Source: a virus
Taxonomy: Duplodnaviria; Caudoviricetes
IMG/VR virus record: IMGVR_UViG_3300028797_000093
DNA length: 64,000 bases
Direction: 5' to 3' (one strand)
Shown here: positions 22,059 to 42,979 of the stretch, piece after piece
Position numbering within the stretch: position 1 is the stretch's first letter
Layout of the letters: the number at the start of each line of letters is the position of its first letter
Position numbers and translations under genes: made by a program
Notes under the pieces: generated by a model
The model's input: only the letters and a program-made list of their open reading frames with translations
What the model was told of the DNA's origin: nothing
The model's database searches: none

Positions 22059-23015
22059 ATGCTGACTCTAATGTTTAATATAAGACAAATAGAGAATGCA
22101 GATGATATATTTAAGTTTTATATAGATAAAGTTAGAACTATATTCAATTATTTTAATGGAAGAATCAATAGAATAAATAGTAATGTGCAACTAGTCATAG
22201 ATTATTATGACTATATAAATAGAAACTATGGATGTTTTATATCTCCTAATATAGTATATATTTATATTGGAGAAATAATAGAAGGATCTTATAGATTCTT
22301 TAACTATATGAATCATGATGCTATAGTTACAGAGATTATAATATCATGTATACATGAGTTAGTACATGCAGAGCAAGCATTGGATAATTCTATGTATAAG
22401 AAAGATACTACATATAAAACTCAATTAGAATTACATGCAGAGTTGGTATCTTTTGATTATATAATAAGAAATCAAAAAGAGTTGGAGTATCTATTCTCTT
22501 TTAACGTAAACTTTGGTATAGATAATATACCTGGAATGATACTACAGAATATAAACTATAACACATACACTTCTGTATTTAATAATAGTGATACTCTCAA
22601 TAAATTTGCTTCCATAGAAGATATGTATATGCAAATTTTCAAAAATGAGGGTTTTATGCAAAATTCTGAGGTTTCCTGGCTACTTACACAGGAAAGTGTA
22701 GATAACGTCGTTTTTGCAATTTTTGACTCTCTGAGAGTATTCAATTTAATGCACTCAGGAAGCCATAATTCAAAAAATTTACCATATGATGAAAAACATA
22801 TGGTAATTATTAAGAGAAATAGATTATGGAGCACAGATGGGTTTCCTAAATTTGTAGATATGATTAATAGACAAATTATACAATATAAACCACTTAAATA
22901 TAGAATATCAATTGAAGTATTAAATAGATATGATGAGTTTAAACAATTTAAAAGTTATGGATATATTATATTAAACATAGATAAAGAAAATAGATATATA
23001 AATCCAATAAGATAA
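22059..23015 (+). CDS. HExxH motif protein (putative metallopeptidase)
   Basis: CIHELVHAEQ; TATATTAT motif upstream. Confidence 0.6.
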   Translation: MLTLMFNIRQIENADDIFKFYIDKVRTIFNYFNGRINRINSNVQLVIDYYDYINRNYGCFISPNIVYIYIGEIIEGSYRFFNYMNHDAIVTEIIISCIHELVHAEQALDNSMYKKDTTYKTQLELHAELVSFDYIIRNQKELEYLFSFNVNFGIDNIPGMILQNINYNTYTSVFNNSDTLNKFASIEDMYMQIFKNEGFMQNSEVSWLLTQESVDNVVFAIFDSLRVFNLMHSGSHNSKNLPYDEKHMVIIKRNRLWSTDGFPKFVDMINRQIIQYKPLKYRISIEVLNRYDEFKQFKSYGYIILNIDKENRYINPIR

Positions 23016-23050
23016 AGGATTGGACCAATATCCAATCCTTTATTTTTTTT

Positions 23051-23994
23051 GTTTAAATGATAGGGTGGCGCCAAAACTCCAGTCGGTACTACTAGCAGAA
23101 TATGATAAACTAATATAGAAAGCACCACAATAGAGACCACGATTCGAGCGACTACCACGATAAGTATAATGAGCACCATTACTTTGAGCAAAATAATCAC
23201 AATAAAAAGAAGAGGCTTAAATGATAGAGCAGCACCAAGGCTCCAATCTGGACTAGAAGCAGAAAGCATACCACTAACAAAGAAAACACCACAATAGAGT
23301 CCACGACCTGATGCACCACCACGATAGGAATAGTGTGTACCACCACTTTGATAAAAATAATCACAATAATAGCTACCACTAATTTAAATGATAGGGTAGC
23401 ACCAAGGTACCAGTAAATACCAGAAAACAAATAGTTCAGAGCAACAAAGAAAGCACCACAATAAAGACCAGAGTACGAATAACAACCACGATAAGCATAA
23501 TGTGAACCACTACTTTGATAAAAATAATACTATGGTTTAAATGATATGGCAGCGCCAATATACCAGCGATTACGACCAGAATAGTCGTTTAAACTAGCAG
23601 AGAAAACACCACAGCGTAAACCATCGTCGCATTTATCTCCATGAATAGCATAATGATCACTTGAACTTTGATAAAAATAATCACAATAAAAAGACTGGTT
23701 TAAATGATAGGGCGGCGCCATAGACCCAGTAGGTATAACCAGAGCCGTAGTAGAGATTAACAAAGAAAGCACCACAATAGAGGCCATAGCTCGAGGCACC
23801 ACCACGAAGAGAATATACAGTACTCGTAGCTTTATACATGGTTTAAATGATAGGGCGGCGCCAACTCCCCAGTGGGCAAAGCTATCAGAAGACGAGCCAG
23901 AAACAGAGAAAACCCCACAAGCAAAGCCATAACTACAGAGACCACCACGAACAGCATAATGAGTGCTACTACTTTGAGAAAAATAATCACAATA
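23051..23994 (-). repeat. DGR variable-region-like cassette cluster 2 (6 tandem cassettes)
   Basis: Units start on the plus strand at ~23051, 23216, 23383, 23535, 23698 and 23841; five YCDYF-type and one KATST-type; bounded by terminators at ~23012-23043 and ~23999-24031. Confidence 0.9.
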
Positions 23995-24033
23995 AAAAAT
24001 ATGGAGAGGTAACTTAATACCTCTCCATATATT

Positions 24034-24564
24034 TTACTTCTTGTACATGGGGCATCCACTCTGTACCTTAATAGTATCATGAGCAGGAACAGTAGTGGGA
24101 ACCTTGGAGTAACGAGGAGTTCCGTCCTCATTTACACCAACCTTACGAGGATAGCTCTTTGTAGTCTCAGGAACTTCCTTACGAATGAAGGATACATCAG
24201 AATGTTCGCGGCATCCAAGAGGAAGCTTACGATTAGTCTGCATATAGGTGAGAATAAATTCCTTACCAATACGAACCATAGCATCAGATTCGATCTTGGA
24301 AGCATCTCTTTTCTGAATCAGCTTGATAGCTTCATCAGTACTGATATGGGTAGTATCAGTTACGATCTCTACACACATATTCTTATAGTCTTCAGCAGGA
24401 CAATATTCTCCTTCGAGACCATCCTTACCAAAAACACCAACCTTATAGCTCGTATCATTGAGCATAGCTTTCATAACACGAGACTCGTCTTTCTTAGAGG
24501 AACCCTTCTGAGTTAGATTCTTCTGGATATCCTCAATACAAGCCTTTACAGTTTCGTTTGCCAT
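24034..24564 (-). CDS. HU/IHF-like DNA-binding protein with N-terminal extension
   Basis: C-terminal half (SKIESDAMV...RKLPLG...SFIRKEVPETTKSYP...TTVPAHDTIKV) follows the HU helix-strand-arm pattern; high-expression codons. Confidence 0.5.
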   Translation of the reverse strand: MANETVKACIEDIQKNLTQKGSSKKDESRVMKAMLNDTSYKVGVFGKDGLEGEYCPAEDYKNMCVEIVTDTTHISTDEAIKLIQKRDASKIESDAMVRIGKEFILTYMQTNRKLPLGCREHSDVSFIRKEVPETTKSYPRKVGVNEDGTPRYSKVPTTVPAHDTIKVQSGCPMYKK

Positions 24565-24590
24565 TGTGGTAAAACCTCCTAAAAATCTTT

Positions 24591-24764
24591 TTAATTAATA
24601 ATTACGGGTACTAGTGGATCAATCAATTTTCTTTCTTTTCCTTTTTCTAGAATTAACTGATTGATTTCTTCTGGGGTCATTGAAGCTAAGAGAGTAAGAA
24701 AATTATCTTTTCTAATTTCTTTCTCTTTCTTCTCCTCTTCTGTTAATTCTTTTTTAGATGGCAT
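24591..24764 (-). CDS. small hypothetical protein (57 aa, not in ORF track)
   Basis: GGAGG RBS then MPSKKELTEEEKKRKEIRKDNF...PVIIN*. Confidence 0.6.
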   Translation of the reverse strand: MPSKKELTEEEKKEKEIRKDNFLTLLASMTPEEINQLILEKGKERKLIDPLVPVIIN

Positions 24765-24812
24765 TCTATACCTCCATCTTTTTATTTAATTAGTTTAGTT
24801 TGTATTATTTTA

Positions 24813-25151
24813 TTATATTGAGGAATATGTTAGAAAATCTTTAGGATAAAGGAATTGAAGTTCTGATAATGCTACAGAAGAGTTATACTTCTCATTTACA
24901 GCAGATATCATATCTTCTATTTTCTCTTTATCTTTAATTAGTATATAAATTTCTTGATACTTATCAGCTAGATTGATCTTAGAAGCTGTATAGGTACTAT
25001 TCATAAATATACTGATGACTGAAGCAAAAGCAACTTTAGCAACTATAAAGTCTCTCTCTTCAGTAATATTTTTTATATCTTCTACTTTCTTTTTAAATTC
25101 ATACTCTAATCTTTGTCTCATTATTTCAGGGTTTTGTGGTTTCTTTCCCAT
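24813..25151 (-). CDS. hypothetical protein
   Basis: 112-aa ORF with AAAGG RBS. Confidence 0.6.
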   Translation of the reverse strand: MGKKPQNPEIMRQRLEYEFKKKVEDIKNITEERDFIVAKVAFASVISIFMNSTYTASKINLADKYQEIYILIKDKEKIEDMISAVNEKYNSSVALSELQFLYPKDFLTYSSI

Positions 25152-25302
25152 ATATCATTAACCCTTTCTATATTTTTATAGTATTTAATCCTAATTCTAT
25201 TTAAATAGGAACTATTAGTATGTATTGCCTGTTTTAAAAGGTTATTTTAGATCATATTAACAAAATAATAAATTGAAATATAGCCCAATTGGAGGTTTAT
25301 AT

Positions 25303-27837
25303 ATGAAAACAATAGAGGATCTAAAGCCATTACGGATGTATTCTCCAAAAACTAAACTATATGCTCCTACAAATGTAATGAATAAAAGAAAAGGAGCTGC
25401 AATATTACTATTAACTCGTAGTACTGATGAATCAGAAATGATAATGAATCTTCCATATATCTATAACCCAAATCTATTTGTATCTTACTATATCAGCAAG
25501 AATGTAAATGCTTACATTAAGTCTAATAATATAGAAGTAGATACGAATGATATTGATGATGATACTAGTCTGAGTACAAAAGAAATGGATGAGCTGATGA
25601 ATGAAGCTACAATCTTTTCAAGACTAGGAAACAGATATCCTAATATTAAATATGATAATGAATCTTGTTCCACATATGATATAGCTTTCTTCAAAGATGC
25701 TTTGTCTAAGGATTTTATTACTGAATGTATGGAGAAACTTCAGTATAATAATCTATCTGGTACTATCACAGTATTTGCTCATAAAGATCCTGATGATTTT
25801 ATCAGTAAAACCAGTGATGCAAATCCTTACAGTTATTATACTTCTAATCAACTCCATATGCTCTCCAAATCTTCTTGGGAAGCTAATTGTAGTGATAAGA
25901 GCTATACTGATTATATAAGAACAGTATTTGTATCATATATGATCAAGAGAATGAGTCCTAAGATCAATTTCTTCTTAGCTCATCTATATGCTTCTTATAT
26001 TATAAAAAATCCAAATAATAATGTAGTAGAATATACTAATATTTTCAATGGTCTAGATAAACTGGTAGCAGAATTTGGTTTCTCTACTATCTTGGCCAGT
26101 ATTTACAAGTACACCATTGATCCTGTATATAAATTTCTTAATACTAATACAGTAAACTATATTAAGAGTTCTATCAAGACATCTACATCTGTATTATCAG
26201 AGATTACTCTTAATGATGCTATTCAATCACATGGATATTACTATGATGAGAGATGGAATAGTATCATTGAATATAATGGTGATCTATATAGAGAAAGAGT
26301 AGAATGTCTTGTAATAGATAAAGAAGACAAATCTGTCTTTCTTTATTTTAAGAAAGATGGATCATACAATATTCCTGGTGGATCTACAGAAAAAGATAAA
26401 GAAAATGAAGATCAAGTGGCTGCTGAATGTAAAGAAGAAGCTAGAATCTCTATTAAGAATATTAAGAGTACAGAATTGGTTTATCTGGTTAAATATGATA
26501 GTTCTCCAGATTGGATGAAGTTATACCCAATTAAATGGTCTGGAGCAATTAATAGAGTATATACTGCAGATTATGATAAACCATATACTGGTATTATAGA
26601 TGATATAGATAAAGATAATGATATGTATAGGTTTGGTAAGTTCTATAAGATAGAGGATGTATATAAATTTCTATCTCCTATACATAAGGTTGCTATTATG
26701 AATTATCTAAAAACTAATAAGATGAAGATTAGATTAGCTCTTAATACAACCAAAAGTTCAGTAAATGAATCTGGAGATAGATATGAAAAATTAAATCAAT
26801 CCAACTATAATGAAGCTGTTTTAACAGAGAATGGTTATCTTGTAGAAGATGATTATTTTATCTATAATAATATCAATGATGAAAGTATAATTTCTTTCTT
26901 TAACAAACCAGAATATATCACTGAAGCTATTAAAATCAATAAGAAGTTTGATGATACTGTTTTAAGAAAATATCTATATAAAGAACGTATCAGAACTAAT
27001 AGAGAACTAACAGCTATGTATGCTGATATTAAAGCTAGAAACCCATGGATAAAAAGAACTTATCCATATATCAATAGATACATGGGATTTAATATCTATA
27101 TAGATTTTTCATATTATCATTCTGTATTCTTAAAGAATAATATGATCAAAAATGATAAGGGTGTAGGAGTTTATTGGGATATTATTAATAGACTTCTAGA
27201 TACAGAAGAAATTAATAAGAACTATAATAAACAGACTATTATAATTCCTGTGAATGCTAACTCATGGAATGTAAGCAATCCTGAGGATCTATTTAACTTT
27301 AGAGTTAGTATCAATCCAATATCTACTATAGTAAGACTACTAAGAAGTAATCCTATGGAACTTCATAAATGGGATAATAAGAAAATCCTCTTTGTAAGTA
27401 ATAAAGGATTCTTTACACTAGATTTTGGCACTTTCTCTATGGCTAATATAAATAGGTTTAAGAAGTTCATTAGAATGCTGATGAATTTTGAACCTATTGT
27501 ATATGAAGATGACGATGAAGATATTAATGTAGATACTAAAGCTGTAACTATCAATAAAGCTCTAGATAATATTGAGAAGTCTACTGGTGTACAACTCAGT
27601 AATTCCAGTGAACCTCAAATAAATAAAGATATAGTAAATATCAAAAGTGATATAGTATCAGGTTCTGCTATTAGAGTTATGACTCTTACTAAAGCTAAAG
27701 TAGTGCTTCCTATAGTTAATGGAGTTAAGAATCTAGTATATTACCTTACTCCTAGTCAGGATACTACCATTAAGAGTCTAAATAAAGAAGATAATATCTC
27801 TAATAAAAAAGAAATTAAGAATATTACAGTAATCTAA
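25303..27837 (+). CDS. probable virion protein with a degenerate Nudix domain and a domain paralogous to the RNAP beta N-terminus
   Basis: IPGGSTEKDKENEDQVAAECKEEARI (Nudix-box-like); start at MKTIED after GGAGG; AACA-N6-TA at 25259. Confidence 0.6.
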   Translation: MKTIEDLKPLRMYSPKTKLYAPTNVMNKRKGAAILLLTRSTDESEMIMNLPYIYNPNLFVSYYISKNVNAYIKSNNIEVDTNDIDDDTSLSTKEMDELMNEATIFSRLGNRYPNIKYDNESCSTYDIAFFKDALSKDFITECMEKLQYNNLSGTITVFAHKDPDDFISKTSDANPYSYYTSNQLHMLSKSSWEANCSDKSYTDYIRTVFVSYMIKRMSPKINFFLAHLYASYIIKNPNNNVVEYTNIFNGLDKLVAEFGFSTILASIYKYTIDPVYKFLNTNTVNYIKSSIKTSTSVLSEITLNDAIQSHGYYYDERWNSIIEYNGDLYRERVECLVIDKEDKSVFLYFKKDGSYNIPGGSTEKDKENEDQVAAECKEEARISIKNIKSTELVYLVKYDSSPDWMKLYPIKWSGAINRVYTADYDKPYTGIIDDIDKDNDMYRFGKFYKIEDVYKFLSPIHKVAIMNYLKTNKMKIRLALNTTKSSVNESGDRYEKLNQSNYNEAVLTENGYLVEDDYFIYNNINDESIISFFNKPEYITEAIKINKKFDDTVLRKYLYKERIRTNRELTAMYADIKARNPWIKRTYPYINRYMGFNIYIDFSYYHSVFLKNNMIKNDKGVGVYWDIINRLLDTEEINKNYNKQTIIIPVNANSWNVSNPEDLFNFRVSINPISTIVRLLRSNPMELHKWDNKKILFVSNKGFFTLDFGTFSMANINRFKKFIRMLMNFEPIVYEDDDEDINVDTKAVTINKALDNIEKSTGVQLSNSSEPQINKDIVNIKSDIVSGSAIRVMTLTKAKVVLPIVNGVKNLVYYLTPSQDTTIKSLNKEDNISNKKEIKNITVI

Positions 27838-27892
27838 AAAAAATAAATAGTAGAAGGGTAAATATCCTTCTACTATTTTTTATATGATACTG

Positions 27893-28032
27893 GTTTAAAT
27901 GATAGGGCGGCGCCACGATGCCATACAAGCCCAGAAGCAGCAAAGTTCAGAAAAACAAAGAAAGCACCACAAACGAGCCCATTGTTCGAGGTACCACCAC
28001 GAATAGCATATGCAGTACTCGTAGCTTTATAT
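27893..28032 (-). repeat. DGR variable-region-like cassette cluster 3 (single KATSTAY-type cassette)
   Basis: Encodes KATSTAYAIRGGTSNNGLVCGAFFVFLNFAASGLVWHRGAALSFK; lies between two convergent terminators. Confidence 0.9.
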
Positions 28033-28083
28033 ATGGGATAAAAAATAAAAGGTAAGCATATTACAGCTTACCTTTTATTTAAA

Positions 28084-29061
28084 TTATTTCTTATCCAAAT
28101 TCTCAAGGTACTTCAATACTCTTGTAGCAGTTTTTCTGTCTTTTACTGCTTTTACAATATTTGTACCATCAGACATATGAGCAAATACTATAGCATTATT
28201 TGAAAATGGATTTGCAACAATCTTTTTATCATCTGTGATAGGATATACTTCAATCATTGGAAAATCACAATACATCAACCAAGGAGTATCATCATTTCTG
28301 ATATTATATTTAACCAAGAAGCATAAATAATCTGTATAATATACAAATCTATAGAAAGCGTATTTGATAGAGATATCTTCACCATCATCTACAAAATTAT
28401 ATGTCTTAATCATATTAAATCTAGTCTGCAAAGCTACCAATATAAGATCTATAACTTCAGCAGAAAAATCACTACCAGGATATGTGATAGCATACTTAGT
28501 TAAATTTTCATCATATACTTTATAATATTCTTTACCATAATCAGATCTACTGATTCTACTAGAATCCTGAGTAGGAAAGCTGTTTTGTCTCAGCATTCTA
28601 GAAGCATATTCAAAAGGAATCTCAATATAGTTTGGATTACCAACTTCTTCTCTGCTTCTTACAAAGAAATGATTATTATTAGTCTTGAAGATAAAATCTC
28701 CAATATGAAGTCTATGATCACCATTTTTACCAGCAGAAGCTTTAAGTACTTTACTGGTTACAAATTTTCCATTTAGAAGAACTTTCTCTTCTTCATATAT
28801 AATATCATTAGAGACTTTAGCCTCAGGATTAGTAAAGATTTTCATAAAGTTAAAAACTTTATCAATATCTCCATCATATTGAATTCCAACGAGAATTCTA
28901 TTATCATGAACTACAAAGCTTAGATCATCTTTATCATATGCAATACAAATAGTATCATACTGATTTATATCAGGAATTTCTTTTTTCTCCTGTTTCTCTT
29001 TCTTAGATTCTTTATATTCTGAAAAGAAACCTGAGACATCTTTCTTCTTATTTTTATTCAT
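28084..29061 (-). CDS. hypothetical protein with a domain resembling 29062-29367
   Basis: VGIQYDG...IGDFIFKTNNNHFF. Confidence 0.6.
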   Translation of the reverse strand: MNKNKKKDVSGFFSEYKESKKEKQEKKEIPDINQYDTICIAYDKDDLSFVVHDNRILVGIQYDGDIDKVFNFMKIFTNPEAKVSNDIIYEEEKVLLNGKFVTSKVLKASAGKNGDHRLHIGDFIFKTNNNHFFVRSREEVGNPNYIEIPFEYASRMLRQNSFPTQDSSRISRSDYGKEYYKVYDENLTKYAITYPGSDFSAEVIDLILVALQTRFNMIKTYNFVDDGEDISIKYAFYRFVYYTDYLCFLVKYNIRNDDTPWLMYCDFPMIEVYPITDDKKIVANPFSNNAIVFAHMSDGTNIVKAVKDRKTATRVLKYLENLDKK

Positions 29062-29367
29062 TCAAACCTCCTCATATGTCTTCCAGAATATATCTGGTTT
29101 ACAAGGATAGAATTCTCCATTTACTCCCTTTATAATAAAATCACCTTTATTAGCAATCATATCACCCTCAAGGGTTCTGATAGCAAAGCTAATTTTAGGA
29201 CTTTCTTTGTTAGGATCAAGAGCATCATATACTTTTACAATACAATTCTCTTTACCAACAAACTGAATAGCATACTCATAGTTATCTTCTGTATACTCTA
29301 GAGCCTCAATAATTACAGGCTTCTTTTTATATTTCCTAATGTTCTCACTCTGTCCTCTATTAGCCAT
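29062..29367 (-). CDS. conserved phage protein (KKPVxIEA...TLEG...YPCKPDIF family)
   Basis: YKKKPVIIEA, IRTLEGDM, GDFIIKGVNGEFYPCKPDIF. Confidence 0.75.
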   Translation of the reverse strand: MANRGQSENIRKYKKKPVIIEALEYTEDNYEYAIQFVGKENCIVKVYDALDPNKESPKISFAIRTLEGDMIANKGDFIIKGVNGEFYPCKPDIFWKTYEEV

Positions 29368-29418
29368 TATAATATATTACCTCCTAATAAATTAAATTAT
29401 TATTAGGTAATAAATAAT

Positions 29419-30228
29419 TTAAATTTTAAACTTATAGAAAGTTTCAAATTCATTAATTAACCAAATATCTGCTTGGTCAAATGTTTTGGTTATCTTTCTA
29501 TTCATATAAGCAATCCAATCAACAATTTCTTCCTCTTGAGCCCAAGGTCCATATGTATGATTGCAACTGCTCAATAAACCACATTCAGAAAGATAAGCAT
29601 GAACAATCTCATGATGTAGAGTATGTCTTTCTTGTTCATATTTCCATATAGCAGGTTTATCTTTATATCTATCTGTAGTAGATGTATCTAGTAATTTAAT
29701 CTGCTTAAGATTTACATCACACATTCCTTGAATTACAGAATCTATTTCATTAGTTCCATCAGGATATCTAAACATACAATAATCTGTTCCAAGAATAGAA
29801 ATTACATTATTCGTATTTTGAGTCTCTTTTTCTATTCTATCTTCTTGATTCTCACATACAGCTTCTATCATATCTTCTGTTATACTTTTCTTCTCAATCA
29901 TATTTACTTCCTTAAAATTCTTATCAAATATTTCAGGCTTATAAGTATAATAATACTTCTTCTTAATATCATATACTAGATATTCATACGTGAATAGATA
30001 GATATGATCTTCTGTATTATTGAAATCTATCTTAATATCTATATATGTTTTAGAAGTTCCATCATTATATTGATCTGAAAGTAAAGAATAACTATATACA
30101 ATAGGTTTATCATCCAAAAATACAATAGGTCTATTTTCTAAGAATTCTATAACATCTTCTGCATTGTATCCAGTATATAGAATAGCATCATAGAAGTTTC
30201 CTTCTTTGTCTTGATACTTTTTAAGCAT
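29419..30228 (-). CDS. two-domain protein: KPxIF-type N-terminal domain plus HExxH C-terminal domain
   Basis: YTYKPEIFDKNFKEV; HHEIVHAYLSECGL. Confidence 0.65.
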   Translation of the reverse strand: MLKKYQDKEGNFYDAILYTGYNAEDVIEFLENRPIVFLDDKPIVYSYSLLSDQYNDGTSKTYIDIKIDFNNTEDHIYLFTYEYLVYDIKKKYYYTYKPEIFDKNFKEVNMIEKKSITEDMIEAVCENQEDRIEKETQNTNNVISILGTDYCMFRYPDGTNEIDSVIQGMCDVNLKQIKLLDTSTTDRYKDKPAIWKYEQERHTLHHEIVHAYLSECGLLSSCNHTYGPWAQEEEIVDWIAYMNRKITKTFDQADIWLINEFETFYKFKI

Positions 30229-30246
30229 TATTAGATACCTCTCTTC

Positions 30247-30342
30247 TTATTTCCTTTTATTGTTCTTAATAACTGTAATAGCACATATAATGATAACCAG
30301 TAATAATATAATGGAAAGAGCCATCAAAATATATATGATCAT
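30247..30342 (-). CDS. small membrane peptide (31 aa)
   Basis: MIIYILMALSIILLLVIIICAITVIKNNKRK*, ATGA-coupled to the upstream gene. Confidence 0.45.
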   Translation of the reverse strand: MIIYILMALSIILLLVIIICAITVIKNNKRK

Positions 30343-31298
30343 ATTTCACCTATCTTACGGAAATGCCTATTCAGTTCTTTTTCAGATTTAATAATCCGAA
30401 TATCGCTAATGTGTTCATATGGTCCTATAATGAAAGCAACATAATCATTATCATTTACTATATCTACACTAACAATCTCATTTTCATCATTAGTCTTATA
30501 TAGATAGATTCTATGATCATCTGTACTACAATCGTAATAGAAAGCATAATTAAACATATCACGAGGTTTGGTAAATTGCTTAATATACCAATTATAGAAT
30601 GATACACAAGAAGGATGATCATTCGAACTAGAGAATTGTGTTACATACACATTGAAATATATAAGAGCATTAGAAGGATTTTCATCTTCAGAACACAAAT
30701 ATTCTGCACACTTAGAATTCTTAAACCTATGTGTAAAATCAGGTATAACCAATTCTTTACCCCATTCAATTTCAGGTTCATCATCTTTATATCTTGTAAG
30801 AGGACTGATCCTGATAAATCTATTACTATCTTCTACTTCTTCTTCCTTCTTGATGAAGTAAGAATTTCGATCAAAAGATTCAAACAGATAGTCTCCATAT
30901 CCTAATTCTTTACCAGAAGCTGTATCTACAAATCGTCCTATACAAGTCTTCTTATTCTTATTATCATTTAAAGACCAGTGAATTTGTTTATAGTCATTTA
31001 CAAGATGATCAAGATCATCTTGAGTTATTCCTAAGAAGGTAATAATATCATCCATATTATCACCATTTTCAAATAGAGTATATCTAATACCTCTAATAGG
31101 CTTTCTATTGTGCAAAAACAAAGAAACTTCTTTTGGATATTCAAATTCCTTTGGAGCATTCTTTCTCTTAAGCTCTTCAGCATTTATCTCTGATTCATAT
31201 TTATTAATAATCTGAGTAATATTCTGTAACTGTTTTCTTGCAGACTTCTCTAAATCTTTTAGAGAAGATAAGAATACCTTTTTGTCATTTAAAGTCAT
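30339..31298 (-). CDS. hypothetical protein
   Basis: 319 aa; RKPIRGIRYT...GDYLF resembles the neighbouring family. Confidence 0.6.
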   Translation of the reverse strand: MTLNDKKVFLSSLKDLEKSARKQLQNITQIINKYESEINAEELKRKNAPKEFEYPKEVSLFLHNRKPIRGIRYTLFENGDNMDDIITFLGITQDDLDHLVNDYKQIHWSLNDNKNKKTCIGRFVDTASGKELGYGDYLFESFDRNSYFIKKEEEVEDSNRFIRISPLTRYKDDEPEIEWGKELVIPDFTHRFKNSKCAEYLCSEDENPSNALIYFNVYVTQFSSSNDHPSCVSFYNWYIKQFTKPRDMFNYAFYYDCSTDDHRIYLYKTNDENEIVSVDIVNDNDYVAFIIGPYEHISDIRIIKSEKELNRHFRKIGEI

Positions 31299-31831
31299 CT
31301 GATATCATCCCTCACTCTCATAAGAACTTGTCCTAAAAGATTCTGTCCCCATTTATCAAACTCTTTACAAATAAACTCAGAGGATTCTTTACTATAACCA
31401 ATACCCCAGATTCTATCATAAGGAGAGCACTCTACTAATACATATTCTTTAGTGTCAATAAGTTTCTGTTTAATATCACTATTTCTCTCATCAGTAAACT
31501 TAGCTTTAATAACTTCAGTATATATAGCTCTCTTATTGAGATCCCAAATACTTGAATCGAAATTCTTAACAGTTCTTCCTAGATTCTTAGCCACTTTAGG
31601 ATAATCTGTTATCATAATCTTATTAGCAGTTTCTATATCATTAAATAGCATTGCTTTAAAGAAATGAACAGCATGTTCTGATGTCTTAAATTCATAAGAT
31701 TTAACACCATCTTCATTCATATAAGATACAGTAAAAGGACTATAATAAAAATTGCTGAGAAAACCATATTCTTCATTTTCTCTAAAGAATCCAATGAAGT
31801 TTTGCTCTTCTCTATAACCTGATTCAATCAT
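31295..31831 (-). CDS. NADAR (YbiA-like) family protein
   Basis: FLSNFY, TSEH...KAMLFND, AKNLGRTVKNFD, LVECSPYDRIWGIG, GQNLLGQVLMRVR. Confidence 0.92.
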   Translation of the reverse strand: MIESGYREEQNFIGFFRENEEYGFLSNFYYSPFTVSYMNEDGVKSYEFKTSEHAVHFFKAMLFNDIETANKIMITDYPKVAKNLGRTVKNFDSSIWDLNKRAIYTEVIKAKFTDERNSDIKQKLIDTKEYVLVECSPYDRIWGIGYSKESSEFICKEFDKWGQNLLGQVLMRVRDDIR

Positions 31832-33676: not shown

Positions 33677-33693
33677 ATGTTTACCTCCTATGA

Positions 33694-34416
33694 TTATTCT
33701 TTTATATTCATATCTTTATAAGCATTACAAATTTGGCAATTATTAGTATCACCAATATTGATGATAACTTGAGGTTTTAGTAAGAGCATATCTTTATCTT
33801 TATTATAGAATAGATTTTCTCTATAATTAAGAATTAGAAAACTCTTAGTTACTGGATCGTTGAATTTAAGAGCTAGATCTATATCATCCAATACAAATCT
33901 AGCATAATCTTTAGGATTAATATTCTCTATAGTATCTACAAATATAGATACTTGAGAACTATCTATTCTTAATGCATTCTCTGCAAAGTTTTTCTCTGTT
34001 TCATTTCTACAAAGTATAGAGCAACGTATATCTTTTCCTATAGTAGTATATGCATGTATTAGAGTAGACATTAATGTAACTGGAGATATCTCCAATAGAG
34101 TTATATACTTAGTTGTATCATTTACTATTTCATTATAGATATTATAAGCAGATTCTTGAGTCTCTGAAGAGAAGCAAGCTTTTATAATATCTATATCTTC
34201 ATATACATGTATTTTCTTTAACTCATCTACAGACTTACCTGTAAAATCGGTATTAATATATGGAGATCCATAATAGAATCTATCCATAAACTTTACAAAT
34301 CCAATCTTAGTATCTACTAATGAAGTAAATAGAAACAATATTCTATTAAATCCACTGGCATTATGATGAAATTCAGATTGACCTATAGGTCTCCATTGTA
34401 TACTATTCTCATCCAT
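33694..34416 (-). CDS. hypothetical protein
   Basis: 240-aa ORF, GAGG RBS. Confidence 0.65.
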   Translation of the reverse strand: MDENSIQWRPIGQSEFHHNASGFNRILFLFTSLVDTKIGFVKFMDRFYYGSPYINTDFTGKSVDELKKIHVYEDIDIIKACFSSETQESAYNIYNEIVNDTTKYITLLEISPVTLMSTLIHAYTTIGKDIRCSILCRNETEKNFAENALRIDSSQVSIFVDTIENINPKDYARFVLDDIDLALKFNDPVTKSFLILNYRENLFYNKDKDMLLLKPQVIINIGDTNNCQICNAYKDMNIKE

Positions 34417-34506
34417 AATGGATTACCTCTCTTAATAAAAAATAAAAGGAGTGTGCTAATAAATAGAACACTCCTTTTATTATATGGTAAAAGTCCCTTC
34501 TATAAG

Positions 34507-35361
34507 TTAATCTAGAAGACCATCATCAATGTCATCTAGACTACTTAACTGATTATACTTATTAGCTCCTTCAAGAGCAGAGGAAGTGTTTCCTCCATTA
34601 TTATTATATCCATTATTACTACTGCTATTTCTACCATTGTTGTCAAAGAAAGATCCTGTTGATCTCTGGGATCTACCAGTATATTCAACACCTAGTTTAT
34701 TCATAATAGCATCAATCTTATTATTCATAGTATTCTCTCTATACTCATTTGCTTTACCAGCAGCTGCTGCATATGCATATGTAGAAGCATTGATAAAATT
34801 CTCCAGCATACAAAGAAGCTGCTCAATTTCCAGATTTCTATAAGAATCGAAATCTTTATCAAATCCTCTGATTTCATTATCACTAGCATCAAGATTAGTG
34901 ATAGCATAATGATAATCTATCTTGAACTCATAAGCATAAGTCTTCTGTACAGTTCCATCAGTTTGATCAATCTGACGAATAATCAAACAGGGATTAGTAG
35001 TACCATGTTGAGCTCCATTATTAAGAGTAACAACACCCTTAGTAGTATTTACACCACTGTTATTATATTTAACAGGGTCTTTCAGGAAGTTCTTAATTAC
35101 ATTAGCAAAGATTCTAGCCTTATCTGGAGTCAGAAAGATAACAGCAGAATCCATATCATCGAATACAATCTCATTATTTCCAGTATCTTTTCTATTAGTA
35201 ATCTTAATCTTTATCGTACTATTCCAATACTCATAGCTAATTCTAGTTTTATCAACAGTACTATCAGGATTAATGTATTTAATTGGAGTATAGGTAGTAC
35301 GACCTTTGTTTTGCTGTTGATTGTTGTTTCCTACGTTAAAATTGCTTCCGTTATAGGCCAT
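34507..35361 (-). CDS. putative single-stranded DNA-binding protein
   Basis: Beta-rich core, N/G/S-rich linker, acidic tail DDIDDGLLD. Confidence 0.5.
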   Translation of the reverse strand: MAYNGSNFNVGNNNQQQNKGRTTYTPIKYINPDSTVDKTRISYEYWNSTIKIKITNRKDTGNNEIVFDDMDSAVIFLTPDKARIFANVIKNFLKDPVKYNNSGVNTTKGVVTLNNGAQHGTTNPCLIIRQIDQTDGTVQKTYAYEFKIDYHYAITNLDASDNEIRGFDKDFDSYRNLEIEQLLCMLENFINASTYAYAAAAGKANEYRENTMNNKIDAIMNKLGVEYTGRSQRSTGSFFDNNGRNSSSNNGYNNNGGNTSSALEGANKYNQLSSLDDIDDGLLD

Positions 35362-35497
35362 GCGAATAATCTCCTTTTTATATACAAAATATTTTTCATT
35401 CGCTATTAATTAGTTATAGTATGTATAAAATGATATTATTCAACTATTATTTAATTTAATTACCTAAAAACACTAGAATAAAGGAAGGTGAAATATA

Positions 35498-36115
35498 ATG
35501 GATGAGAATTATTCCTATATATATCCCACTATAGCTATTTGTATAGAAGATATTGATAGACTTGCAGGTAAAGAATATAAGTTTACAATCCCTTCTATTA
35601 ATTTTAATAAAAGCTCTTCAAGTGAAGATAAATCAGAAGAGAAGAATCAAGGTATTACCAATATTGCCAATGAAGATAATGTAAGTATTGGTAAAGTAGA
35701 GATTAATAACTATTTTATGATATATGTTCCAAATGAACTTATAGCTACTACTTATACGACTGTTGGTATGGATGGTACCCTTATAGGTGAAGGTCATAAT
35801 TATAGTGATATAAATTTTAAATCTGTGCAAAGTGGTAGTGGTAATGTAAATACAAAAATAGTAATTCCACCACATCCTATTTCATCATATACTATTACCA
35901 GTTTTATTATGAGTTTATTTAAAATTGGTAGTGGTAATATGAAGGGTATTAAACAAAATTATGATAGTTATAAAATCCATGCTAAAACTCCATCTTCTAA
36001 TCATGATATGAGTGTAATGCCATATGATAGATATATACCTAAAGGATCTAAATGGATTGTAGTATTTATAGATGGAGATCCTACTAAACCTGCTATTGTA
36101 GCAAGATATAGATAA
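35498..36115 (+). CDS. putative baseplate spike/hub protein (gp5/gpV OB-fold-like)
   Basis: IPKGSKWIVVFIDGDPTKPAIV matches the PxxGxxVxVxFxxGDxxxP signature; late promoter at 35469. Confidence 0.5.
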   Translation: MDENYSYIYPTIAICIEDIDRLAGKEYKFTIPSINFNKSSSSEDKSEEKNQGITNIANEDNVSIGKVEINNYFMIYVPNELIATTYTTVGMDGTLIGEGHNYSDINFKSVQSGSGNVNTKIVIPPHPISSYTITSFIMSLFKIGSGNMKGIKQNYDSYKIHAKTPSSNHDMSVMPYDRYIPKGSKWIVVFIDGDPTKPAIVARYR

Positions 36116-36142
36116 ATAAAAAGGATAAGGCCAATTAAGGCC

Positions 36143-36391
36143 TTATCCATTATATTTAGTATTCATAATAAATCTAATATAATTATCTATAGTATTCATA
36201 TACTTATCTCTGGAATCTATCTTAATATGATCAAACTCATAAAATTCTGATTGAGTGTAGAGTTCTTTGTTCTCTTTTATGATATATAATGGATTATCCA
36301 TTACGTCTATAGCTTTTATTTTATCCATTTGATTGGTTCTAATCATTTTAAATATAATAGTATCATAAGTATATTGAGCAAAGCCAGTCAT
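36143..36391 (-). CDS. hypothetical protein
   Basis: 82 aa, AAGGGG RBS. Confidence 0.5.
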   Translation of the reverse strand: MTGFAQYTYDTIIFKMIRTNQMDKIKAIDVMDNPLYIIKENKELYTQSEFYEFDHIKIDSRDKYMNTIDNYIRFIMNTKYNG

Positions 36392-36436
36392 AAATATCCC
36401 CTTTTATTTATATTAAATTTTTATTATTAAAATGTA

Positions 36437-36540
36437 ATAAAGTGAATAGGTTACTAAAACTAGTAACCTATTCCTGGCTGTTCAAAAGAGAGGAAGCAAA
36501 TCTGAGAGGTACAGCATGTCAACTACCAAATTCAAAACCT
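36437..36540 (-). ncRNA. candidate small RNA
   Basis: Exact AACA-N6-TA promoter (36540-36551), no RBS-led ORF, CU-rich tracts, terminal hairpin 36444-36473. Confidence 0.45.
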
Positions 36541-36611
36541 ACTAATATGTTATAGAGTTCAACATTATTATTAAAAAATAATTTTACACATTTATGGGAG
36601 GATTTTAATAT

Positions 36612-37574
36612 ATGTTTAATAGTGATCTAATTGATCCACTGGAGATTGTGGATGTAGAGTATGAGGAAATTCCTAATACTACTAAAGATATGTTTGGAAT
36701 GGACTTTAGCTTCTTCCAAACAGACAAAGCAAAAATTACTCCAGCTGATGATGGAGTAACTAGTGCTGATAAACCTAAGAGAAAATATACCAAAAAAGAA
36801 AAAGATGGAACTATTACAGTTGCTGAAGTTCTTGATGCAAATGCTCCTGTAAGGAGTCAGTATGATGCAGCATTTGAAGATACTAATGTAGAACTTAGAA
36901 AAGCTATTGCCCAAACTGATATTCTTATTAATGAAATTAAAGAAGATATTGATAAGATAAGAGCAAGTTCTACTATTAAGAATAAGTATACATATACTAC
37001 TAATCTTACCACTAGTCAGAGTAATCTGATTGCTACTAAGATTCAAGCTATCAGAGAGCTCAATAATAGTAAAACAACTGCTCTTAAGATGGATCTTGAT
37101 AGGCAGAAACTCTTTAAAGAAGATGCCAGTAAACAGGACGATAATATGCGTATCATGGATCTATATAACGCATTTGTTAATGCTCCTGTTGGTGCATATA
37201 ATCCAAATCCAATGCCCAGTATGATTGATCTAACAGCATCTGCTACAGGTGGTGCTGGTGGTGATATTAAGTTTATGGGTGTTGATATTGATACAGATGA
37301 TCCTAAGATGCTGTCTCAACAGCAAATCACTATGAGAGCATCTGAAGATAGAAATCTTAAAACTGTAGTAAGATATAATGCAGAAACAGGTGCTAGAGTT
37401 TTTGATGTAGTAAATGTTCAAACTGGTGAATCTGTAGCAGGTGTTGAAAGACCTGATAGTTTCCTATTACAGGATACTACTCTAGATATTCAAAATAGAA
37501 TAGCAAAGAATAGAAATATTGGAGCTAATTGGGAACTAATTATTGAAGGAAACACTGCTCTAGATGAATATTAA
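36612..37574 (+). CDS. hypothetical protein with coiled coil
   Basis: 320 aa, GGGAGG RBS, terminator 37580-37606. Confidence 0.7.
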   Translation: MFNSDLIDPLEIVDVEYEEIPNTTKDMFGMDFSFFQTDKAKITPADDGVTSADKPKRKYTKKEKDGTITVAEVLDANAPVRSQYDAAFEDTNVELRKAIAQTDILINEIKEDIDKIRASSTIKNKYTYTTNLTTSQSNLIATKIQAIRELNNSKTTALKMDLDRQKLFKEDASKQDDNMRIMDLYNAFVNAPVGAYNPNPMPSMIDLTASATGGAGGDIKFMGVDIDTDDPKMLSQQQITMRASEDRNLKTVVRYNAETGARVFDVVNVQTGESVAGVERPDSFLLQDTTLDIQNRIAKNRNIGANWELIIEGNTALDEY

Positions 37575-37620
37575 TAATAGCTGTGCTCTCATCTTGGGAG
37601 CACAGCCTATTTTTTCTTTT

Positions 37621-38580
37621 TATTGTGATTATTTTACTCAACGTAGTGGTACAAATTATAGTCTTCGTGGTGGTGGATCTAATGATGGTGCTATTTGTGG
37701 AATTTTCTATATTGTTATTTACTACAGCTCCAGTGCTGCTAGTTGGCGTTCTGGCGCCTCCCTATCATTTAAACTATATATATTATTTTTATCAAAGTAG
37801 TGGTGCTCATTATTCTTATCGTGGTGGTAGCTCTGGTTATGGCTTTGCTTGTGGTTTCGCTTGTGTTGTTCTCGTTGCTGCATTTTCTGCTAGCTCTTGG
37901 GGCATTGGCGCTGCCCTATCATTTAAATAAGATAGTTATTATTGTGATTATTTTGGTCAAAGTAGTGGTGCTCATTATGTTCGTCGTGGCGGTCGCTGTA
38001 CTAATGGTTTCAATTGTGGTTTCGCTTATATTAGCCTTGGTGACGGCTTCGGAACGGCCAACTGGTACACAGGCGCCTCCCTATCATTTAAACCATATGT
38101 TTTTCTTTTTATTGTGATTATTTTACTCAAAGTAATGGTACCAGGTATTCTCTTCGTGGCGGTGCCTGTAGTTTTGGTTTTTATTGTGGTATTTTCTATG
38201 TTTACCTCGGCAGTAGCTCTGGTGCCGGCTGGAGCATTGGCGCTACCATATCATTTAAACCGGTCTTTTTTATTGTGATTATTTTGTTCAAAGTAGTGGT
38301 GCTCATTATTCTTATCGTGGTGGTAACTGTGCCCATGGTCTTAATTGTGGCATTTTCTATGTTAATGAATCGGCTGCTGCTAGCAATACCAACTGGTATC
38401 GTGGTGCCGCCCTATCATTTAAACCAATAAGTGATTATTTTTATCAAAGTAGTGGTACTCACTATAGTCTTCGTGGTGGTGCCTCTAGTAATGGCTTCTA
38501 TTGTGGCGTTTTCTTTGTTATTCTCAGCGCCGGCTCTGGTTATGCCAGCTGGTACATTGGCGCCGCCCTATCATTTAAAC
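37621..38580 (+). repeat. DGR variable-region-like cassette cluster 4 (6 tandem cassettes)
   Basis: TATTGTGATTATTTTnnTCAA...CGTGG(T/C)GGT...TGTGG...TGG...GG(C/T)GC...TATCATTTAAA six times, between terminators at 37580-37606 and 38589-38620. Confidence 0.9.
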
Positions 38581-38629
38581 AAAAAAAAATAAAGGATTGG
38601 AGATTAGTCCAATCCTTTATTTATATTTT

Positions 38630-39091
38630 TTAGATAAGAGCTCTATATCCTTTTATAGATTCAGTATCATCTGGATCTACAGCTCCAGAGCAGAAAGTAT
38701 ATAATTGTCCTTTCTTATTATGTACCATAAAATACCACATACCAAGAGGATTCTTATACATCTCTTTCCAGAATTCTTCCAATTCATCAATTGTATCAAA
38801 TGTATAGTAATCTTTTATTCTGCTACAATCTGTATAATTGTCTGTAAATGTAAAGAACCAATCTTCACATGAAGTATCTTTTGCTTCATCGCTATCATCA
38901 GCAAATGCTATTAAGTATTTAAAATTATTATTAGAAAGAGTATAATCTATATCAGATTCTAGTGGACAATTACGATAATATTTTGTCACTAGTTTCTTCA
39001 TTCCATATAAATCAGTTTCAATACTAGTTTCAGGAGTTAATACAACACCTTTACCATAACAACAGTTCTTACATTTATAACTTTTCAACAA
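38630..39091 (-). CDS. hypothetical protein
   Basis: 153 aa, GGGAGG RBS, TTG start. Confidence 0.6.
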   Translation of the reverse strand: MLKSYKCKNCCYGKGVVLTPETSIETDLYGMKKLVTKYYRNCPLESDIDYTLSNNNFKYLIAFADDSDEAKDTSCEDWFFTFTDNYTDCSRIKDYYTFDTIDELEEFWKEMYKNPLGMWYFMVHNKKGQLYTFCSGAVDPDDTESIKGYRALI

Positions 39092-39100
39092 TATCCTCCC

Positions 39101-39803
39101 TTATACATGTATCATATTACTATAGTTATTATTTACATTACCTCTAAAGATACCAATAGACTCTAGAGGGAATAGTGATACACAATCATTTATAATACTC
39201 TTATAATCAACAAATGGTAAAATCCATTTAGGAACTTCTTCAGATTCTGGTAGAGCCATAGCATCTATAGACCCAGCATAATCTTTAGTCCCCATAAGAT
39301 TAACCATCTTCATATATACTTCAGGATAAGTATCCTTGATAGCATCTACATTCTTTAGAGTAATATTAGTCTTAATAATATCTATAGTATTTCTTTGTTC
39401 CAGATTGATAGTACTCATACTATCATCTTTAATACTATTATAAGCTAAAGAAGATTTAATCCCTTGTATCCTCATAGGATCATCATAAGCTGCTAAAGAC
39501 TTAATCCTAGCAGGCTTATAGAACTTCTTTTCTCCATTCTGAATACTATCAAATATACCTTTCTCTACAATAGCTATATCTTTCAATACCTTAACTTGAT
39601 CAATCTCATCAGAGTTAAGAATATCTTCTAGCAATATAGTTTTAAGTTGTTCTCTTGTAGTAGCATTAGTAGTCGTTTTAACAAAACAAGGAATACCTTT
39701 AATATCTAATGCTTTTTCTCCTGGTACTATATTACCTTCTTGAAGTAATTGATAAGATGCATAATTCTTTTTAGCATTCTCCAGCAATAGTAACTTCTTA
39801 AAC
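39101..39803 (-). CDS. family B DNA polymerase catalytic subunit, exon 2
   Basis: After splicing reads ...MKNEFL/FKKLLLLENAKKNYASYQ (KKxY motif), DIKGI. Confidence 0.85.
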
Positions 39804-40198
39804 CGCTTGTTCCCTATATTTTCATATAAGGGCAGACTATATCTTCATCTTAGTATCTGTTACCAATATCTAAGATGCCTCCCATTTCGAGATAACTATT
39901 ATAAAGATATCTCTACTCTACTCGGTTCTCATATATAGTATTTCTCTATATATTACCCTTTCGATAGTCGTTGAACCTGCTGTGTTATTTACACAGATTG
40001 GCTGCTGATTGCCCATTGATAATAGGTTTTAGGATTTCTCCATAACCCATCTCTCTACTTGTTTCTGCTTTTCAGCTCCATATAGGCTAGAGAGCTTTAG
40101 GGTGTCCCAGCAATTAAGGAGGTTTACATTCTAATGTCACCATTAGAAGTCCCAATATTCAAATTCAATGTTCTAATCGCATTGAATTGAATGCTTCT
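39804..40198 (-). ncRNA. group I intron (395 nt, no homing endonuclease)
   Basis: P AATTGCTGGGA, Q AATCAGCAG, R GTTCAACGACTA, S AAGATATAGTC; 5' exon ends in U, intron ends in G; removal restores the frame (CT+G = Leu). Confidence 0.92.
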
Positions 40199-41556
40199 AG
40201 GAACTCGTTTTTCATATACATGAAGCAACTATGATTTTCTGGATTATAGCTATTACTATTCATGCTATATCTGATCATAAAATCATTAGTTATTTCTGTA
40301 ATTACATAACAGATTATATTTATAATAGAATATTTAAGATTATCTTGTGGAACAATCTTATTAGGAGTTATAGCTCTATCAATCTCTATAACTTCATCAT
40401 GCTCGAAATCATAATCTTTAGTATATATTTTAGTAACTTCATCTGTATCCATATTGAGTTCCATCTCCATGATAGGATACTCAAGTCCAGAATTCAGTAC
40501 TTTATCTAGAATAAATCTATACCAACCATCAAGAGATAGAATACAAGAATCAGTATCATTAATAAGTGCTACACTTCTAATAAGAGACTCCATCTTCTCT
40601 GTTCTATCTATATGCTGATGATCATAATATACATATTCTCTTAATAGATTAGAGAATACTTTAAGCTCTTCTTTAATTTCATCTGGTACTTTATTAGGAT
40701 TTACAAAAGGAGCACTAAGTTTCTGTAAAATATAGAGAATAGATCTCAATACTTTACTATTTCTCTCTATAAAAGCAAATAGGTTATTCTTATAATAAAG
40801 TCTATTAAGATCTGTAGGAGATAGACCTGTAAGAATATTCCAAATGATCTGTAGATCTTTCTCATCAGGAAGATATCCAAATCCTATAGATTTTACTATA
40901 TGATAGAAAGTATCATCTATAGATACATCTCCATCAAGAATCTCATAATCAGAGAAGTATCTCTCTTCAGTAATTACATGATTAATGAAAGTGATCACTT
41001 CATTAAGAGAAGAGAATGGTACATTATTATTCAGGAAAGATTCAAACAATAGAGTTGCAGAAGATATAAGATTTCTACCTTCAGTAGTAATAGAAGTCGC
41101 TACGTGAAGATTATAATAGATACAAGAGAACTTACCCAATGCACCATAGAATGCATTAGCATCTATCTTATCCAGTAGCTGTAATAGATTATATCTCTCA
41201 AAATCTTCAGAACCTTTTTCATATTGGAACATTTGTTTCTTATGGATACTTCTATTATCCAAGAACTTCTTGACCATTTCTATAGTAGGATTTGGAACAG
41301 TACCATGCCTACTAAACATAACCCCATAATGAGTTATGATAGGTCTTCTATCATTGATATATTCTACAATATCTTTTAGAGTAGTACTGATAATTTGCTT
41401 CTTATAATTATTATTAATTCTAGCAGGATGATTGGTCTGTCTTTTATCAATAGACCAATTTATAGCTTCTTCAATTTCAGGAACTGTAAGCATCGGAAAA
41501 CTTAGTTTTAGCATTCGTCTAGATATATCTTTATAATCTCTATAAATATCTTCCAT
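40199..41556 (-). CDS. family B DNA polymerase catalytic subunit, exon 1 (spliced product 686 aa)
   Basis: Motif B QLLDKIDANAFYG, ITTEGR, motif C NDTDS; no exonuclease domain, as in the split polymerases of phiKZ-like phages. Confidence 0.85.
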
Positions 41557-41723
41557 AGTTTCCTCCCTAAGGAATATATTATTTCTTTCTCTTTTAATAT
41601 AAAGTTTTAAGATATATAAATAATCAAATATATACTATCTAGTCAAAAAGAATTTAATGACTTCATATAACAACATAAAAGTAAATATATCTAATACAAT
41701 CTATACAGGAGGATTAATATAAA

Positions 41724-42128
41724 ATGTCTATTTTTGGAAAGAAGGATGATACCATGAGTGGAAAGCTGAAGAATCCCAATGCTCTTCGTGAAGCTTATCT
41801 ATATGAATATCTAACTGCAAGAGGACAGGAGAAGAAGTTTGTAGACTCTCCAGAAGCATCTGTAATGAAGGAAGAAGGAATGATTACAGATGAACTAATT
41901 GAGAGACTTTCTGCTGCTAAAGCAAATAATAAGAATCTAGAAATGACTGTTCTTCATCTTGCTAAGGCAGAAGATGATCCTCTATTTGATCGTCTTGTAG
42001 CAGCTAGAGCTGAAGAGAGAAATATCATGAATGAACTGATTGCTAAATATCAGGAGTCTGCTGTAGAACTTACTGATAAGTATGTGGATAAGTTCCTGAA
42101 TCAGGAGCTTCCTAAAGAATTTAAATAA
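41724..42128 (+). CDS. hypothetical, probable virion protein
   Basis: 134 aa; AACA-N6-TA at 41672; terminator 42143-42169. Confidence 0.65.
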   Translation: MSIFGKKDDTMSGKLKNPNALREAYLYEYLTARGQEKKFVDSPEASVMKEEGMITDELIERLSAAKANNKNLEMTVLHLAKAEDDPLFDRLVAARAEERNIMNELIAKYQESAVELTDKYVDKFLNQELPKEFK

Positions 42129-42177
42129 AATAATAATAATATAGAGGTAGGTCTATAAAGATCTACCTCCTTCTTTT

Positions 42178-42979
42178 TATTGTGATTATTTTTATCAAAG
42201 TGGTGGTACACACTATTCCTATCGTGGTGGTCACTCGAGCAGTGGTTTTATTTGTGGTTTCACTTGTGTTGGTCTAGGTGGCAACTCCAGTGCGACAGGC
42301 TGGTACTATGGCGCCGCCCTATCATTTAAAACTATATGTGTATTATTTTTCTCAAAGTAGTGATACTCACTATTCTGTTCGTGGTGGTCACTCTGGTAAT
42401 GGTTTTTATTGTGGTTTTACTTTTGTTCACCTCATCCGAGGCTCTGGTTTTGCCAGCTGGGGAGTTGGTGCTGCCCTATCATTTAAACCTCTTCTTTTTT
42501 ATTGTGATTATTTTTATCAAAATAGTGGTACTCGTTATGCTTTTCGTGGTGGTTATTGTAATATTGGTTTTGATTGTGGTTTTGCTTTTGCTGGACTCAG
42601 TTATTCTACTGCTGTTGCCAACTGGAATCTTGGCGCCGCCCTATCATTTAAACCATCTTTTTTATTGTGATTATTTTTCTCAAAGTAGTAATACTCATTA
42701 TGCTTTTCGTGGTGGTAGCTCGGGCAATGGGCCCCGTTGTGGTTTTGTTTGTGTCTATCTATACTACAACTCTAGTTATGCCCTCTGGTATGTTGGCGCC
42801 GCCCTATCATTTAAACCAGTCTTTTTATTGTGATTATTTTTATCAAAGTGGTGGTACAAATTATACTTTTCGTGGTGGTGCCTCGAGCGGTGGCTTCTAT
42901 TGTGGGGTTTTCTATGTTGGCCTCCACCGCAGCTCTGGTTATGCCAGCTGGTCCATTGGCGCCGCCCTATCATTTAAAC
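42178..42979 (+). repeat. DGR variable-region-like cassette cluster 5 (5 tandem cassettes)
   Basis: Units ending CTATCATTTAAA(C) at ~42330, 42488, 42653, 42817 and 42979; starts directly after a terminator. Confidence 0.9.

Follow-up and report, generated by a model that had tools for sequence, protein, structure and literature searches.

Silent donor-cassette loci for gene conversion are represented by pilS of Neisseria, vls of Borrelia and the tprK donor sites of Treponema. Here, we describe arrays of apparently silent cassettes in a bacteriophage, the Caudoviricetes record IMGVR_UViG_3300028797_000093 of IMG/VR, starting from a stretch of 64,000 nucleotides (nt; hereafter the window) that corresponds to the reverse strand of bases 92340-156339 of the phage contig (244,302 bp, 31.6% G+C). 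The cassettes resemble the targets of a diversity-generating retroelement (DGR). DGR retrohoming involves a hairpin/cruciform 4-34 bp downstream of the variable repeat (VR), with a GC-rich stem of 7-10 bp and a loop of 4 nt, and group IIC introns home just behind intrinsic terminators (PMC3240598). A first-pass annotation of the window had proposed that every cassette cluster begins right behind an intrinsic terminator and runs in the direction of the upstream transcript, as a result of either hairpin-directed insertion or selection for transcriptional silence. On balance, and by a modest degree, we favor the view that the hairpins are ordinary intrinsic terminators of the neighboring genes, and that the arrays came to occupy transcription-unit boundaries through genome compactness combined with selection against transcription.

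An nhmmer profile made from the eleven plus-strand cassettes of the window, run against the whole genome, retrieved 58 cassette copies in 16 clusters, namely two real target genes, one template repeat and 13 arrays devoid of open reading frames (ORFs). The two target copies form the C-terminal ~54 codons of two long ORFs (~530 amino acids each), while the template repeat is a single AAY-rich copy beside a reverse transcriptase gene (RVT_1, 75.2 bits). Compared with the template, both target VRs lack mismatches at the 76 non-adenine positions, yet differ at 12-14 of the 28 adenines. A complete DGR, with reverse transcriptase, template repeat and VR differences confined to adenines, is therefore present. 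The remaining 55 copies lie inside no long ORF and deviate from the template at 2-24 of the 76 non-adenine positions, so they are not products of the resident template; nor do they qualify as current DGR targets, given these non-adenine mismatches and a GC-rich hairpin that is restricted to the two real targets. Besides, the cassettes reach ~44 nt further into the target-gene sequence than the template repeat does on its upstream side, and hence were not copied from the DGR template RNA. Each unit of ~163 nt consists of conserved segments flanking a variable core, retains the GC-rich end motif GGCGCCGCCC and is joined head to tail with the next. Cassettes have no start codons, contain in-frame stops and are mutually out of frame. 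What the arrays contain, then, is the 3' end of the two DGR target genes (the last ~54 codons) in partial copies that lack a promoter, amounting to 0.15-1.1 kb of untranslated, stop-laden DNA per array. Their +1 frames hold long hydrophobic ORFs, whose expression would probably do harm. A search of IMG/VR for the exact end motif of the cassettes gave zero matches, and GenBank phages yielded short intron-like matches only. Of note, an HNH-like ORF with CxxC motifs (genome 5872-6579, plus strand; outside the window and partly covered by locus L001) is located between the DGR template repeat and one of the arrays, cl4, which may be a remnant of a third target gene.

The position of the arrays is not random. 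Terminators were predicted with a consensus scan that was compared with shuffled sequence, and folds were computed separately; gene calls and the genome-wide terminator list came from simple custom scripts, and termination itself is predicted throughout. Genome-wide, a hairpin plus T tract precedes 11 of the 13 ORF-less arrays at a distance of 0-40 nt. Had arrays been placed in intergenic regions at random and in random orientation, the expected rate would be p0 = 0.066 per array and P(>=10/13) = 3.5e-10. Since 47% of all gaps of at least 40 nt hold a terminator, a stricter comparison with these gaps gives P = 0.027 for 10/13 and 0.006 for 11/13 arrays, so that the non-random position survives a tally of all cassettes against predicted terminators. 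The claim that every cluster sits right behind a terminator thus holds for the window (5/5) and for most of the genome, but not for cl4 or for cl6, which begins 182 nt behind its terminator. Convergent junctions are enriched for arrays (4/13 arrays versus 20/236 gaps), and no cassette footprints were found at other terminators of the genome.

The orientation claim needs to be read more narrowly. Between two convergent genes, either orientation places an array next to a co-oriented terminator, and the orientation of such an array therefore proves nothing; window clusters 2, 3 and 4 are of this kind, as is one further array elsewhere in the genome. The "five out of five" of the first-pass annotation accordingly shrinks to two informative clusters, one of which (cluster 1) has no identifiable preceding gene. 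Genome-wide, however, all seven informative arrays between same-strand genes point along local transcription (p = 0.008, or 0.035 with cl4 counted as a failure).

All five leading hairpins in the window proved to be where the first-pass annotation had placed them, each forming a strong stem-loop with a T-rich tail behind it when read on the cassette strand. With folds of -12 to -21 kcal/mol and loops of 3-8 nt, they have the form of intrinsic terminators, and the consensus scan independently recovered four of them (37580-37606 and 42144-42169 on the plus strand, 24030-23999 on the minus strand, and 28043-28080); it listed 19 terminator-like sites in 19.9 kb, compared with 6.0 +/- 2.3 in shuffled sequence. 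The first recognizable cassette base follows the stem at a distance of 4-40 nt. At four of the five window hairpins, the stop codon of a co-oriented gene precedes the stem by 5-12 nt, and the same holds at 9 of 11 genome hairpins with a spacing of 5-48 nt, the exceptions being hairpin 1071-1097 and that of cl16 (gap of ~150 nt). It was likewise borne out that clusters 2, 3 and 4 face the terminator of a convergent gene, as a second hairpin marks the 3' end of each.

Cluster 1 (cl12; 614-1032, minus strand) comprises three type-2 units found by nhmmer, with in-frame stops and no long ORF. It follows a hairpin plus T tract at 1071-1097 (minus strand) whose fold is bidirectional and which is listed on both strands; upstream of it, only short ORFs exist, within a 2.7-kb gene-free repeat region. 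Cluster 2 (cl11; 23045-23998, minus strand; six units, nhmmer) starts behind the terminator (23999-24030, minus strand) of gene 24034-24564 (minus strand), with the T-run of the first cassette beginning 2-4 nt past the stem, and ends at the terminator (23009-23046, plus strand) of the convergent gene 22059-23015, the stem of which is 92% identical to that of the hairpin at the 3' end of cluster 4. Cluster 3 (cl10; 27888-28019, minus strand) is a single type-2 cassette, again detected by nhmmer. It is preceded by the terminator (28043-28080, minus strand; supported by fold and scan) of gene 28084-29061 (minus strand) and bordered at its 3' end by the terminator (27845-27878, plus strand) of gene 25273-27837 (plus strand), a hairpin that also occurs in a relative lacking this cassette (L016). 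Cluster 4 (cl9; 37617-38586, plus strand; six units, nhmmer) lies between the terminator (37580-37606, plus strand) of a 320-amino-acid gene (36612-37574, plus strand) and the terminator (38587-38622, minus strand) of the convergent gene 38630-39091. Cluster 5 (cl8; 42174-42985, plus strand; five units) begins behind the terminator (42144-42169, plus strand) of a called gene for 134 amino acids (41724-42128, plus strand), and here the cassette T-run (TCTTTTTATTG) serves as the T tract 3 nt past the stem. Directly past cluster 5 lies a promoter-like motif (TTATATATTATAAATATGA; 43000-43018, plus strand) that matches the consensus found before many genes. The gene downstream of it (43092-47051, plus strand) encodes a 1319-amino-acid protein matching beta subunit families of phage RNA polymerases (E = 2.5e-127), and part of the genome is probably transcribed by this phage-encoded enzyme.

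Why arrays sit where they do becomes clearer from gaps that lack them. In 45 array-free gaps between same-strand genes that contain a terminator, the median distance is 10 nt from the stop codon to the stem and 77 nt from the stem to the next start codon. These ~77 nt are filled by the T tract, a promoter consensus (TATATTATA..ATAGA) and a 5' leader with a ribosome-binding site, leaving ~5-15 nt of free bases. Upstream regions of genes are enriched in this promoter-like consensus, which precedes start codons by 23-75 nt; array 3' ends abut it within 0-15 nt. With so few free bases, and with both signals spared, an array has to lie right behind the terminator, meaning that the adjacency is largely forced. 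Arrays are indeed squeezed in behind a terminator, with a promoter or another terminator at their far end; at convergent sites, where a hairpin lies on each side, the second one is predicted to shield them from the opposing gene. The sequences of the array-leading hairpins vary from site to site. As to the consensus itself, it takes the form (T)ATATATTATAA(T/A)(A)ATAGA genome-wide, for example at window 43000-43018 and at genome positions 13918, 21313 and 178267, and three copies are identical over 19 nt.

Related genomes separate the terminators from the arrays. A metagenome scan with the 320-amino-acid product of gene 36612-37574 as query returned seven close relatives with 78-100% identity. 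Contigs of five of these carry arrays, seven in total, all of which start behind a hairpin plus T tract. In L017, an array and the RNA polymerase gene follow a different upstream gene and a different hairpin. Two relatives provide array-free counterparts of window sites. L015 possesses the hairpin corresponding to window 37580-37606, but neither the cassettes nor the second hairpin, so that a single shared hairpin occupies the convergent site. L016 has a hairpin plus 44 nt where the window holds the array 42174-42985, and is also without cluster 4. As both keep the terminator hairpin at their array-free sites, terminators exist independently of arrays and belong to the neighboring genes. Aligning relatives thus delivered the empty sites that the first-pass annotation had suggested looking for; the exact junctions, on the other hand, were out of reach at ~80% identity, which is too diverged for breakpoints to be read.

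A tree of 2.5 kb of DNA from five lineages requires at least two changes of state behind gene 36612-37574, whether these are read as gains or as losses. Cluster 4 content is almost wholly different even among strains whose flanking gene is 99-100% identical, and strains with flanks this similar have only single cassettes in common (92-98% identity), in scrambled order. This indicates that arrays turn over fast, although short-read assembly of repeats may contribute to the impression, the metagenome contigs being short and possibly misassembled. Polarized, CRISPR-like growth from the hairpin end was ruled out by the single shared cassettes and their scrambled order. In L013, a strain with 100% identity in the flanking gene, the cluster 4 site (5349-5994) holds four cassettes, two of which belong to a clearly diverged type (nhmmer E = 3e-10 and 1.5e-14) that has no close match in the genome studied here. 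More distant relatives (IMG/VR contigs of 185-244 kb whose homologs of the flanking gene share 34-46% identity) have no cassettes near the site, and a 54-amino-acid cassette query found none in five whole records of this kind; these relatives are therefore uninformative on array-free sites. A homolog with 85% identity lies on a 262-kb contig.

Judged from sequence, selection for silence together with plain compactness would fit these observations better than hairpin-seeking insertion. In a genome this compact, only the gap between a terminator and a promoter, or that between convergent genes, would be able to take up 0.15-1.1 kb of extra DNA and leave genes, operons, terminators and promoters intact, and arrays that became transcribed would be purged by selection. 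Antisense transcription could be expected to be the worst case, as it would yield RNA complementary to the target-gene mRNAs and to the template RNA. Co-orientation may likewise follow, because it would be the sole direction that keeps a T-run behind the stem and renders any read-through RNA sense; alternatively, T-run and T tract might have acted as microhomology when arrays were seeded.

Several points weigh against our interpretation. Silence is deduced solely from predicted signals, hairpin termination included, and the phage encodes an RNA polymerase subunit of its own. The array cl4, which is located in the DGR locus beside the HNH-like ORF, is anti-oriented and has no hairpin, and the orientation statistic is built on just 7-8 sites. 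Moreover, selection alone gives no reason why arrays should start exactly at a unit boundary. Finally, not all leading and trailing hairpins are of separate origin. The 5' hairpins plus T tracts of cl5 and cl10 are 92% identical over 49 nt despite unrelated upstream genes, the 3' hairpins of cl9 and cl11 are 92% identical over 38 nt, and each of these two sequences occurs twice in the genome, only at equivalent array ends. Some array ends have therefore been copied together with their hairpin, and the 11 cases are not all independent.

The paired hairpins are what speaks for the idea that the hairpins belong to the arrays, in that a module of hairpin, cassettes and a hairpin or promoter was copied to the ends of genes and supplied them with a terminator; neither of the two sequences is found anywhere else in the genome. 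Such a module would not explain why the hairpin remains in place at the array-free sites of L015 and L016. Among the other nine 5' hairpins, no sequence relationship is seen, similarity of the flanks ends after 22-49 nt, and the shared 3' motif is the general promoter consensus that also precedes many array-free genes, all of which makes this explanation improbable. The same limit on flank similarity ruled out large segmental duplications of arrays with neighboring genes, and similarities between stems such as GAGGTAG... were dismissed as an array feature, since they are a genome-wide habit of the terminators of this phage. Still further down the scale, and hardly credible in our eyes, is the proposal that the array hairpins act as DGR target-recognition elements steering mutagenic retrohoming. 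A DGR with RVT_1 enzyme and AAY-rich template repeat is present, and every cassette has kept the end motif GGCGCCGCCC. However, the known element lies downstream of the VR and has a GC-rich stem and a 4-nt loop, and hairpins of that kind (stem TTCGCGC, loop ACAT, plus a second G5/C5 stem) exist at just two places in the genome, in each case ~32 nt downstream of the point where the template homology of a real target stops. The array hairpins lie upstream of the first unit only, with A/T-extended stems, loops of 3-10 nt and subsequent T tracts, and 2-24 of the 76 non-adenine positions in the orphan cassettes do not match the template. Insertion guided by hairpins as in DGR retrohoming, one of the two options of the first-pass annotation, can thus be set aside: the hairpins are on the wrong side of the cassettes, are unlike the known element in sequence and pre-exist at array-free sites.

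A different form of targeting has more in its favor, though we still regard it as unlikely. Arrays may have been actively seeded at the terminator hairpin plus T tract, either via recombination or copy-choice between T tract and T-run, or by a reverse transcriptase that switches templates to a terminated mRNA at its 3'-terminal U tract. None of the arrays starts at a random point of the ~163-nt unit; all of them set in where a unit has its natural 5' end, with the T-run fused to, or directly after, the T tract of the terminator. In type-1 units, the T-run CTTTTTATTG begins 0-9 nt past the stem, taking the place of the native T tract in five arrays, whereas type-2 units start directly past a complete T tract; at several arrays, the 3' end is a truncated next unit that stops within the same T-rich segment. 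Recombination or template switching guided by T tracts would explain both the starts at unit boundaries and the co-orientation, which becomes automatic (7/7). Among five lineages, the site behind gene 36612-37574 switched state two or more times, the 3' arm plus T-run of the cl8, cl14 and cl15 hairpins has lookalikes in internal linkers such as CCTCTTCTTTTT, and DGR reverse transcriptases are kin to enzymes of group II introns, of which group IIC targets terminators (PMC3240598). Yet, with just ~5-15 nt free behind a terminator, adjacency needs no targeting. The ~44 nt of target gene beyond the upstream edge of the template repeat set the cassettes apart from anything copied off the DGR template RNA, neither an integrase nor a ribozyme is tied to the arrays (the Rfam search found only a group I intron in the window), and other terminators are free of cassette footprints. 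The DNA tree does not separate gains from losses, nor does a protein tree, which is poorly resolved, and at ~80% identity the closest array-free sites do not reveal exact breakpoints. The broader notion that terminators serve as landing pads for a library of receptor-tip variants, in parallel to the homing of group IIC introns but with protein-coding fragments, seeded through recognition of hairpin plus T tract by T-run pairing in copy-choice or by reverse transcriptase template switching, strikes us as a shade more doubtful still. As regards the linkers, approximately seven of them (e.g. window 42484-42505) read C(C/T)TCTTCTTTTT and are closer to the 3' arm plus T-run of the three leading hairpins than to the target-gene sequence (GAGTTCTTTTT); units may once have derived from a hairpin-proximal position, or the likeness may reflect chance in pyrimidine-rich DNA.

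The window has further features of interest. A group I intron (Rfam RF00028, 83.8 bits; 39813-40170, minus strand) splits the DNA polymerase gene into ORFs 40165-41556 and 39101-39787, both of which have DNA polymerase matches in PHROG. L016 is without window 39799-40205 and thus represents an intron-less allele, and in L013 and L014 the intron is longer by an internal ~0.8 kb that may be a homing endonuclease gene. The gene-free region next to cluster 1 (~1100-3740, 2.7 kb, 27-29% G+C) contains 36-bp tandem units and many TGAATCTTTC-type repeats and may be a replication origin or iteron field. Besides, one module is present in two copies 4.26 kb apart (47703-48076 and 51962-52324; segments 80-98% identical), each with an AT-rich leader, a hairpin (GGGTAGTAG...), a ribosome-binding site with the start of a small ORF, and an identical terminator hairpin.

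The positional rule could represent a design principle for a phage library of spare receptor-binding tips, which would be parked at transcription-unit boundaries, insulated on both strands and kept in the sense direction. It predicts that arrays are silent and that new ones appear only behind terminators. Should terminators turn out to be active landing pads, non-autonomous DNA would have a novel route by which to spread in viruses; otherwise, the phage would offer a clean example of how a compact genome limits where extra DNA survives.

Compared with the hairpin of the BPP-1 DGR (PMC3240598), the situation is alike in that a DNA hairpin adjoins VR sequence and that the two real targets have the GC-rich form, but the array hairpins are found on the other side of the cassettes, resemble terminators and pre-exist at array-free sites. 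Homing of group IIC introns would seem the closer functional analogy: the arrays, too, follow the stem-loop of a terminator at a distance of a few bases, point the same way as the terminated transcript, and belong to an element family linked to a group-II-like reverse transcriptase. Unlike these introns, they are tandem fragments of protein genes with neither ribozyme nor intron-encoded protein; within the arrays, no group II ribozyme or intron-encoded reverse transcriptase was detected, and an Rfam search of the window at gathering thresholds found only the group I intron elsewhere. In content, the arrays come close to pilS, vls and the tprK donor sites, since in both cases the variable end of an expressed gene is present as head-to-tail partial copies that lack promoters, cannot be translated and have conserved flanks. 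What sets them apart from these bacterial loci is that they are phage-borne and coupled to a DGR, and that they are dispersed over 13 sites at transcription-unit boundaries, co-oriented with local transcription.

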